Positions 49,426 to 51,040 of a stretch of DNA of 64,000 bases are shown piece after piece; the stretch's first letter is position 1; the number at the start of each line of letters is the position of its first letter. The notes beneath the pieces were generated by a model. That model ran no database searches. It saw only the letters and a program-made list of their open reading frames with translations, and was not told where the DNA came from. The DNA lies in contig OY762492.1 in the NCBI GenBank assembly GCA_963665845.2, positions 3,648,001 through 3,712,000 on the forward strand, written 5' to 3'. The DNA is from Candidatus Poribacteria bacterium (lineage in GTDB: Bacteria; Poribacteria; WGA-4E; GCA-2687025). The position numbers were made by a program, and so were the translations under genes.

Positions 49426-49540
49426 GTATCTGTGTTCAAAGTCAATCATTTTGCGCTTTCCGTAGCGCCGAAAGTCGCCGCGGCGGATATTTTTCGGCAG
49501 TACCGAAGGAGCCGCCGCAGCGAGATTTCGGAAAGGGTTT

Positions 49541-50737
49541 TCATCTGCCTTGCGTCCTGTCGCTTGACTGCGGATCGGAAGACGCCGCCGCCGGCGCTTC
49601 TCCAGGCGCCGGCAGCGCCTCCCCGTCAGCCTCATCCAAAGACGCAGATGTTCCGGTCGGCGCCGCAACCGACGCATCGGAAGACCCCGACTCTTCCGAT
49701 GGCGCCGCAGCCGCTGTTTCATCCTGCTCATCAGAAGACCCCAACTCTTCCGATGGCGCCAAAGAACGCAACTCATCCAAGGGAACCCAAGGCGTTCCAC
49801 GCTTCAGAATCGCGTTCGCAAGAACCGCCAACTTCCGCATCACCGCCACAAGAGCCGCCTTCCCAGGCTTGCCGTTCTCCTTCAGACGCTCGTAAAACGG
49901 CTTCATGTCGGGGTTGAAACGAATCGCCGACATCGCCGACATATACAGAAGCGCCCGAACATCGCTCCGACCGCCCCAAATGCGGCGGCGACCAATCGAC
50001 TTCCCGCTCTCGCGCGCCCAAGGAGCCAAACCAAGCAGGGAACCGATCTCACGGCCGCTCCGATTGCCCAACTCCGGCACATGAAGAACCAGATACGCGG
50101 AAAGGAGATCGCCGAAGCCCGGAATGCTCTTCAACAGACGAAACCTCTTGTAAAGATCAGGCTTTTTCTTGATCAACGCCAGAGCTTCCCGCTCCGCCGC
50201 CTTGCGCTCCTCTTTCAGAGTGTCGCGGAGCTGTTCGGTCGCAGCCTCCGTCGGCTCGCCTTCCAGTAAATGCAGCCGATTGGTCCACTGAGTGATCGTT
50301 TTCACCAGTTGCATGCGTATCGTCATCCAGCGGCGAGCCTTTTTCACGACCGGATCGATCGGTTTCGTCGGTTCCAGATCGCGGCTCAGCCCATACAGCG
50401 CGAGCATCTTGGCGTCCAGCGCGTCGGTCTTGGCGCGGACGCTGTAGGAGCGGATGAAGTGATGGGGGTAGTTTGGATGACAGCGGCGGTAAGGGATCTC
50501 TGCTTCGGCGAGCAGCGACGCCAGTTTCCGCTCGTATCCGCCGGTCGGTTCAAAGACGACCATGTTGATGTCGGGGTAGGTCATCAGGAGGCGTTTGATG
50601 AACCGCTTGATGGCGCTCGCGGCGTTCTTGATGGTGGAGGTTTTCCCGCCGTTGATGGAGATTTCAAGCGTGTCTTTGGACATGTCGATTCCGGCGGCGA
50701 TTTTGTTGCTGTTTTCGTCGTGGCGTGGTATGTTCAT
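49541..50737 (-). CDS. IS110 family transposase/recombinase
   Basis: GIDMSK (D), FEPTGGYE (E), KTDALDA (DD), SIPGFG, GLAP..RESGKS (Ser), [34 protein letters not shown]. Confidence 0.96.
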
Positions 50738-50754
50738 TTTCGTTCTCCTTTCGG

Positions 50755-50953
50755 GAGAAAAGGACAAGAAGGACCGGCCTCCTTACTTGTATTCTGTAAC
50801 AAGAACACTGTATCTGTGCGGAGCCTCCGGTCTTTCTTGTCTTCTTTGCGCGGCTCTCGATACTCCCGCACGGCGCCGCTGCGAAGCAACGCGCCCAAGA
50901 CGGTCTGGAGTCTCACCGCGCTACCCCTTAAGTATGCGCTAACTCGAGGGGCA
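50755..50953 (-). ncRNA. Predicted IS110 bridge RNA
   Basis: 5' hairpin plus two large stem-internal-loop domains (50848-50921 and 50763-50841). Loop segments match the target repeat and the element-end junction. Transcript ends are approximate. Confidence 0.8.
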
Positions 50954-51040
50954 AGATCATCATACAAATGACGGCATGGATCGGCCGGCTGTCGCGCAAA
51001 TGAATGTCATCGCTTGTAGGCTGGCGACTCCAGTTAGCCT

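Follow-up and report, generated by a model that had tools for sequence, protein, structure and literature searches.

How does an insertion sequence find one particular base within a repeat that its host carries hundreds of times, and do the two DNAs that it joins have to share a crossover core? These questions are raised by an IS110 element of 1542 bp that lies at 49426-50967, on the minus strand, of a 64,000-nucleotide stretch of a Candidatus Poribacteria genome (hereafter the window; all coordinates without a contig name refer to it, and the features of the element are all on its minus strand). In the available parts of the literature, the bridge RNAs of the IS110 family, their layout and programmability, and the targeting of REP sequences are established (PMC11208160, PMC11208158, PMC13626964, PMC1525189, PMC11187229), see also 10.64898/2026.08.31.748434, 10.64898/2026.08.14.744561 and PMC12288879. 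We think that the element is very probably a multi-copy insertion sequence of the IS621 type. A bridge RNA, predicted in the left end, likely directs its DEDD/serine recombinase to a single position of the CGTCATTCCCGC hairpin repeat, where a target core TT meets a donor core CT. Apart from this unmatched core, the element is one more member of a well-studied family.

The element and its recombinase

The ends of the element were set by ten genomic copies with differing flanks. Judged by its sequence, it is an IS621-type IS110 element with an unbroken recombinase open reading frame of 398 aa (49541-50737), and its assignment to the IS110 family, as originally predicted, is borne out by domain searches (PF01548, E 5e-18; PF02371, E 6e-17), by NCBIfam model NF033542 (180.7 bits against a cut-off of 140) and by phmmer comparison with the protein chains of IS621 (E 6e-27) and ISCro4 (E 2e-28). 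In the alignment, D18, E63, D105, D108 and S244, the last followed by G245, fall on D11, E60, D102, D105 and S241 of IS621. The non-coding end upstream of the reading frame measures 230 bp and 115 bp follow the stop, which is the layout of the IS110 group and not that of IS1111. The nearest plasmid matches lie at 35–38%, ISMno7 being the only one among them that carries a name.

The protein ends in an acidic, low-complexity tail of about 80 aa (49544-49780), delimited by alignment and absent from most homologues. This tail is rich in Ser, Glu and Ala and contains an internal near-duplication; it is found in the genomic copies, among which indels of +6 and −3 occur and the reading frame is kept, and in proteins P0007–P0009, P0012 and P0015. 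Outside proteins of 57–65% identity also carry it. By eye, no older right-end remnant was noticed before the tail. Two tandem WD40-repeat genes (51093-52958 and 52846-54825) adjoin the element, with a sigma70-like promoter match beside them at 51041-51069, and a PhyH-family gene (48211-49110) is placed on the opposite side.

The predicted bridge RNA and its guides

At −89.8 kcal/mol (z −3.6), a value that none of 200 shuffles reached, the computed fold of 50745-50967 contains a 5' hairpin along with two domains of stem and internal loop. This agrees with the two-domain fold of the original prediction, of which all 15 coordinate pairs, including both stems, read as it gave them. The predicted bridge RNA (50763-50953), as outlined by single and consensus folds, would comprise a 5' stem-loop (50922-50953), a target-binding loop domain (50848-50921) and a donor-binding loop domain (50763-50841). 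In a consensus fold over 37 homologues the guides stay unpaired and 28 of 43 pairs show two-sided changes; in one over the genome's own nine copies 6 of 59 do, both being counts without a shuffle control. An Rfam search of the bridge-RNA region gave no match at E up to 1.

The element splits its repeat exactly, as had been proposed, with GCGGGA at 49420-49425 and ATGACGGC at 50968-50975, and the guides can be read against these flanks. In the target loop, where ACCGTCTT is indeed found at 50897-50904 and GCGGGAG at 50863-50869, we delimit the left guide as ACCGUCUU(G) (50896-50904); its U8 matches the T core base of the target and its U7 is a mismatch. The right guide, the 7-nt GCGGGAG, pairs with target positions 8-14 with one G-T wobble and perfectly with the right junction, and next to it lies a handshake UA (50861-50862) that, following the IS621 scheme and the covariation of homologues, complements donor positions 6-7 (TA). 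Pairing of the window copy with its target amounts to 5/7 on the left and 5/5 on the right. In the donor loop, the left guide ACAGAUAC (50810-50817) is identical to the 3' end of the element (49433-49426), the right guide AUACAAG (50786-50792) pairs with donor positions 8-14, and the loop as a whole can pair with both strands of the rejoined ends (8/8 and 7/7). The donor guides had originally been read as strings of nine bases. The strings themselves are right (CACAGATAC occurs both at 50810-50818 and at 49426-49434, and ATACAAGTA at 50784-50792), but their last two bases, UA, count as handshake positions under the IS621 scheme.

By analogy with IS621, the element would circularise, which would place a TTGACT box 17 bp from a TATGAT box and switch on the RNA. 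The donor loop would then bind both strands of ACAGATA-CT-TGTAT and the target loop both strands of (A)CCGTCA-TT-CCCGC, the top strands would be cut after position 9 and swapped, and the short heteroduplex would be resolved to the top-strand sequence. The left guide follows the target core, while the right guide retains G opposite position 8, where T is tolerated by wobble.

The RNA also carries CCAG directly before the left guide (50905-50908). The same four bases precede the target in the commonest occupied sub-family of the repeat, which makes an identity of ten bases; this may reflect either extended pairing or a trace of a guide copied from its target.

Covariation of guides and flanks among homologues

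The query of the homologue search was an alignment built from 24 proteins out of 120 listed. The best 80 loci from each of two scans, 160 in all with identities of 33–43%, were joined by 7 extra loci; a usable match was given by 164 of these 167, and for 107 the contig contained both junction patterns. With these patterns, TGTAT was set for the right donor and CT for the right core, and the left core and the target halves were free. Addition of the genome's nine own copies made 116 rows, from which 23 without a left-guide anchor were set aside; the covariation set consists of the other 93 rows in 40 clusters, one row per cluster, with the genome's own copies forming one cluster and the closest outside proteins (P0007–P0015, 56–84%) left out.

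Guides change with flanks across the 40 clusters, which is the outcome expected in the original prediction, even if shuffles overstate the significance of the following comparisons because the homologues are related to each other. The right guide has 4.68 matches of 5 compared to 2.17 ± 0.21 when shuffled (maximum 2.98 in 5000) and is perfect in 32 clusters, and the left guide has 5.30 of 7 compared to 3.73 ± 0.18 (maximum 4.35). Along the left guide, positions 3-8 match at 0.90–0.95, and positions 1 and 2 at 0.22 and 0.48. When only the 18 distinct right-target 5-mers are compared, the right guide still scores 4.67 against 1.84 shuffled, and the set-aside rows (18 clusters without a left-guide anchor) give 4.56 against 1.83. 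The left donor guide reaches a mean of 7.7/8 over the 40 clusters, a value that is partly due to the construction of the junction pattern. The target-loop handshake changes as well, from U- to C- where donor position 7 goes from A to G.

The claim of a new natural RNA-guided recombinase with readable guides is supported, with the qualification that the element belongs to a wide, multi-phylum set and is no rarity. In a quick tree, the window protein, P0007 and P0009 are on a long branch outside the main clade that targets GTCA-tagged hairpins, a placement that is unsure, and an 11-row group with CT cores is nested within the TT-core group with a support of 98. Among 40 related genomes, 4 have IS110 matches, all of them distant (27–36%). 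The 75 pattern hits of a single-protein search in a collection of genome contigs were followed up and none was confirmed. Three Nitrospirales copies (L174, L176 and L177) are arranged in tandem, and short pieces of repeat units (TCCTGC...TGTCAT) lie between these copies or next to them.

Copies in the genome and the imperfect guides of the window copy

The genome of 3.98 Mb contains seven close full-length copies and two diverged full-length ones (67–79% in pieces), besides one left-end fragment of 445 bp and one solo RNA-like segment. All ten insertions split the hairpin repeat at one and the same position, and not one lies in an unrelated target, so that the bridge-RNA guidance originally put forward survives the comparison of copies. 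The left junction reads CGTCA-TT in 10/10 copies and the right junction ACAGATA-CT in 9/9 full copies. Pairwise identities among the seven close copies are 89.0–95.4%; no two are identical, and thus nothing points to very recent movement. The reading frame is unbroken in four copies (the window copy and C1:3504015, 527536 and 534424), and five of the nine full copies, three close and both diverged, have a stop or a frameshift, some of which could be assembly errors. The guides of individual copies follow their sites to different degrees: the single close copy with U2 in its guide occupies a T2 site, copy C1:1264188 has C2 in its guide and T2 in its target, so that its own guide disagrees, and copy C1:746699 has the left guide AGAGUCAU yet is located in ACCGTCAT.

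The window copy had been called intact, which holds for its reading frame and does not extend to its guides, since these carry mismatches. Its left guide differs from its own site at 2/7 positions and has U7 where the target has A. Ahead of the inner stem this guide lacks one base compared to the main clade, so that a bulge in the DNA is an equal reading to a mismatch at U7. Its donor-loop handshake UA (50784-50785) pairs with its own donor and not with the target, whereas the clade norm is UG, found in 28 of the 29 clusters with target CA and donor TA. The element therefore departs from the handshake rule by which both guides pair non-cognate DNA after the exchange: the UA of the target loop does so, the UA of the donor loop pairs its own donor. 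According to the available text on IS621, exchange is inhibited when a handshake guide pairs with its cognate DNA (PMC11208158) and double mismatches are poorly tolerated (PMC11208160, likewise in its accessible part). Compared to the clade norm, U7 and a handshake that pairs with the donor would reduce the efficiency of the window copy.

These features could also mean that the window copy is damped or spent, and that an older or different bridge RNA, with a fully matched left guide and acting in trans, spread the family. A candidate for such a trans-acting RNA is the solo segment at C1 ~2788100-2788330, which is bridge-RNA-like and has neither transposase nor element ends; judged by its sequence this role is possible. 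It was found by blastn (E 1e-20), whereas the nhmmer left-end profile found the ten copies and not this segment. Its left guide, CCGUCAU, is a closer match to the repeat than that of the main family, it keeps the right guide GCGGGAG and the two-domain fold, and it recalls the solo ssr9 copies of ISPpu9, as far as these are described in the available source. The U7 mismatch, the UA donor handshake, the inhibition by cognate pairing in IS621 and a divergence of 5–11% between copies would all fit this alternative. However, U7 is common to 9/10 copies and UA to 6/10, at independent sites, so both have been inherited through several insertions; the window copy has its reading frame, both ends and both promoter halves intact; and the solo segment lacks the left end of the element and has a shortened inner hairpin. 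We therefore consider this alternative to be unlikely, although worth keeping in mind, and the shared U7 and UA lead us to infer lower efficiency rather than inactivity of the window copy.

The 445-bp fragment (G000:C1:469928-470372) is a mini-element with an intact left end, the bridge RNA region and the first 72 codons. It terminates at an internal GCGGAAA-CT that is precisely joined to the right half of the repeat. Its sequence fits either a re-inserted partial circle, through an internal half-match to the donor guide, or a deletion at a microhomology.

The hairpin repeat as target

The target is the CGTCATTCCCGC hairpin, a repeat of the dRS3/NTS/CGTC-1 REP type with about 800 free copies in the genome; CGTC-1 and dRS3 are equivalent according to the accessible part of PMC3733652. 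The rejoined flank of the window copy fits a CGTC tag followed by ATTCCC-N8-GGGAAT, and the remainder of the split repeat, identified from this flank and the published consensus, occupies 49406-49425. Genome counts are 868 sites with the dRS3 pattern (ATTCCC-N8-GGGAAT), 778 of CGTCATTCCCGC and 174 exact matches to the NTS consensus (taken from the available text of PMC11893778). Occupancy is about 1%, with 10 occupied and 842 free CGTCATTCC.G sites. Three free 14-mers in the window had been put forward as perfect targets; all three are present, but they are perfect in relation to the flank of the window copy and not to its guide. Given A1 and U7 of the left guide, ACCGTCATTCCCGC (107 free) is a closer fit to it than the GCC form is (128 free).

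The targets are mostly intergenic, as had been expected: 9/10 rejoined sites have no spanning ATG-initiated reading frame of at least 200 aa, compared to 84% of 300 random positions. The rejoined site of the diverged copy C1:1533504 is spanned by a reading frame of 436 aa, and hence the insertion there may interrupt a gene. The safe-harbour role that was ascribed to the repeat is a putative one.

Use of the repeat is asymmetric. The opposite arm of the hairpin has the same TT-CCCGC right half 1047 times and is used by 0/10 copies, for which our own arithmetic gives a chance of about 3e-4 if the copies are independent. C, the base of the main guide, stands at position 2 in 8/10 occupied sites and in 244 of the 626 free full hairpins (P 0.010); no significant preference was seen at position 1 (A in 5/10 occupied sites, P 0.19) or at position 3 (P 0.11). 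In addition, CCAGACCGTCAT is present in 4/10 occupied sites against 46/842 free ones (P ~0.002), although the copies concerned (C1:3073472, 469928, 1533504 and 746699) may not be independent.

The latter enrichment, together with the position of all ten sites at a hairpin base, brings up the possibility that the target is largely chosen through the DNA hairpin of the repeat or its wider context, the guides having a partial role. ISPpu10 offers a precedent, as it requires a target stem-loop besides base pairing (10.64898/2026.03.19.712850, in the part available). We regard such a choice as improbable here. Homologues whose targets are not repeats follow their guides equally well, homologue L183, inserted outside any hairpin, has a right guide that matches its site, and the presence of CCAG 5' of the left guide in the RNA means that extended pairing accounts for the enrichment equally.

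One small GIY-YIG gene has hairpin repeats on both sides (locus L185, ~1492-1800; G000:C1:2298881-2299099), which resembles the arrangement described for Ssn nucleases. Insertion of the element splits the CGTC tag from the hairpin and, by analogy, would destroy an Ssn-type site.

The unmatched crossover core

The left junction (50962-50975) consists of left target GCCGTCA, core TT and right donor TGTAT, and the right junction (49420-49433) of left donor ACAGATA, core CT and right target CCCGC, as read from the ten copies and from the full ones, respectively. In IS621 one dinucleotide stands at both ends; here every copy has TT at its left junction and CT at its right one. As target and donor both have T at position 9, the boundary of the element may equally be drawn at 50966-49425, and it is the homologues with a CC target core that place the crossover after position 9. 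This is also where the top strand is cut in the IS621 structure, according to the available part of PMC11208158.

The same arrangement extends to the homologues. A GTCA-tagged hairpin is the target in 27/40 clusters, with varying stems (CCCGC, CCGAG, CCGGC, GCGAG, CCTGC, CCGGG and others), and the named records with such targets include Dehalococcoidia, Binatia, Nitrospirales, Latescibacterota, Proteobacteria and Poribacteria. Among GTCA-target loci the left junction core is TT in 65/69, CC in 4/69 and CT in 0/69. On the right-hand side, a relaxed pattern that matched 84 of 164 loci has TACT at positions 6-9 in 81, TGCT in 2 and another sequence in 1, and the CATT of the target never appears at these positions. 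Left-guide position 8 is U in 27/27 TT-core clusters (the left junction of L082 being doubtful) and C in 10/12 CT-core clusters, while the right guide ends in AG in 40/40. Position 7 is common to target and donor in 38/57 clusters. The four CC-core loci (L107, L108, L138 and L144) make up one cluster from two genomes of Binatia, with an CGTCACCCCGGG hairpin as target; the 'almost invariant' T9 is missing from their targets.

It could be argued that the core is only apparently unmatched, insertion having occurred into repeat variants with a CT core whose left junctions were later converted to TT, as matched cores are used by IS621 and by engineered systems, but this is hardly credible, since the genome has 778 CGTCA-TT-CCCGC sites and none with CT, GTCA-target left junctions include none with CT, and in TT-core clusters U8 is written into the left guide itself.

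We lean towards the reading that CT-core donors are routinely joined to TT- or CC-core targets, with position 7 shared, by a multi-phylum group of IS110 elements directed to the GTCA-tagged hairpin superfamily (dRS3/NTS/CGTC-REP); the left guide would track the target core, the right guide keep the donor core, and the top strand fix the product. If so, identity of the cores would be no requirement of bridge recombination. The bias of the observed junctions fits a short heteroduplex resolved to the top strand, a step that we infer from the bottom-strand cut of IS621 (PMC11208158) and from the unligated, mismatched bottom strand described in PMC13626964, both as given in the accessible text. In the IS621 structure the protein contacts the guide G opposite position 8 (PMC11208158, same part), and by analogy this contact may explain why the G is kept.

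A target core (TT, once CC) unlike the donor CT in 27/40 clusters seems to be new. In the partial literature covered, no description was found of bridge RNAs that target dRS3/NTS repeats or of unmatched natural cores, and an earlier description is possible. In the available text of PMC11208160, core changes in IS621 were made jointly in target and donor, and, for engineered ISCro4 pairs, a filter kept those with identical cores and with positions 6-7 that do not match (10.1101/2025.05.14.653916, also in its accessible part). In the current development of bridge recombinases into genome editors, target and donor are picked so that they share the core and differ at positions 6-7. The natural group breaks both design habits at dozens of independent insertions and could relax the design rules; if the tolerance of unmatched cores also holds in the laboratory, bridge editors would have a wider range of targets. 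If true, the reading also adds a natural record of guide retargeting as a repeat family diverged.

Relation to known systems

As far as the sources on IS621 and ISCro4/IS622 are available (PMC11208160, PMC11208158, 10.1101/2025.05.14.653916), the element shares with them a DEDD + SG recombinase, a long left end with a 5' hairpin, a target loop and a donor loop (predicted here), a sigma70 promoter at the junction, handshake positions and insertion into a REP-type repeat. Its donor core and right arm, CT-TGTAT, are identical to positions 8-14 of IS621. It differs from both in its target core TT against donor CT, in having A at position 7 of target and donor alike, in a natural 7-nt right guide and a contiguous right donor guide, in donor positions 6-7 (TA, not AT), in the acidic tail of about 80 aa and in the repeat family. 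ISPpu9, ISPpu10, ISPa11 and ISRm19 ('type 1' in the available part of PMC1525189) also have all copies at one position of a palindromic repeat, a likeness of insertion pattern, and the target here is of the CGTC/dRS3/NTS family instead.

The original prediction had also stated that Piv/IS110-like recombinases target dRS3 in Neisseria. That a transposase/recombinase encoded by a phage integrates at dRS3 is stated in the accessible text of PMC1797815, but neither the available part of PMC3454330 nor the other literature covered gave the position of insertion; here it is a free insertion sequence with a readable guide that uses the repeat. A survey of 2013 considered CGTC-transposase associations only fortuitous (PMC3733652, in the portion available). 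What our analysis offers is a link between RNA-guided IS110 elements and the dRS3/NTS/CGTC family. This link is already in deposited data, as the raw targets in supplementary file 5 of PMC11208160 include 24 hits of GTCATTCC and 5 of GTCATTCCCG; in those inspected, the target segment seems to be centred one base to the left of the core used here.

Predicted junction promoter and contigs of sequencing runs

The right end contains a −35 box, TTGACT (49440-49445), and the left end a −10 box, TATGAT (50959-50964), which stand 17 bp apart only once the element is circularised. The rejoined ends then yield TTGACT-N17-TATGAT, a promoter predicted from the sequence pattern and absent from the original prediction; the linear form has no minus-strand promoter match. 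A similar junction pattern is present in 92/107 homologue loci. No end-to-end joint of the element was among the joints listed from seven runs of contigs.

Run X2 matches the flanks in the window without differences, with a depth of about 110–190 over the element against 22–30 for most single-copy bins. This depth fits several copies of the element; X2 may be the source sample and would then give no independent support. In run X9, the one metatranscriptome listed, whose contigs come from a diverged relative, the RNA region has a depth of about 5 against 0–5 in neighbouring single-copy bins. One contig of this run (record 31, 702 nt, window 50839-50899) matches part of the target-loop region and continues into hairpin-repeat sequence, being possibly a rearranged derivative. 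Over window 50902-50912, runs X8 and X9 contain a related strain with a left-guide variant, ~CUCGUCUU, in which U7 is kept and which matches another sub-family of the hairpin repeat.
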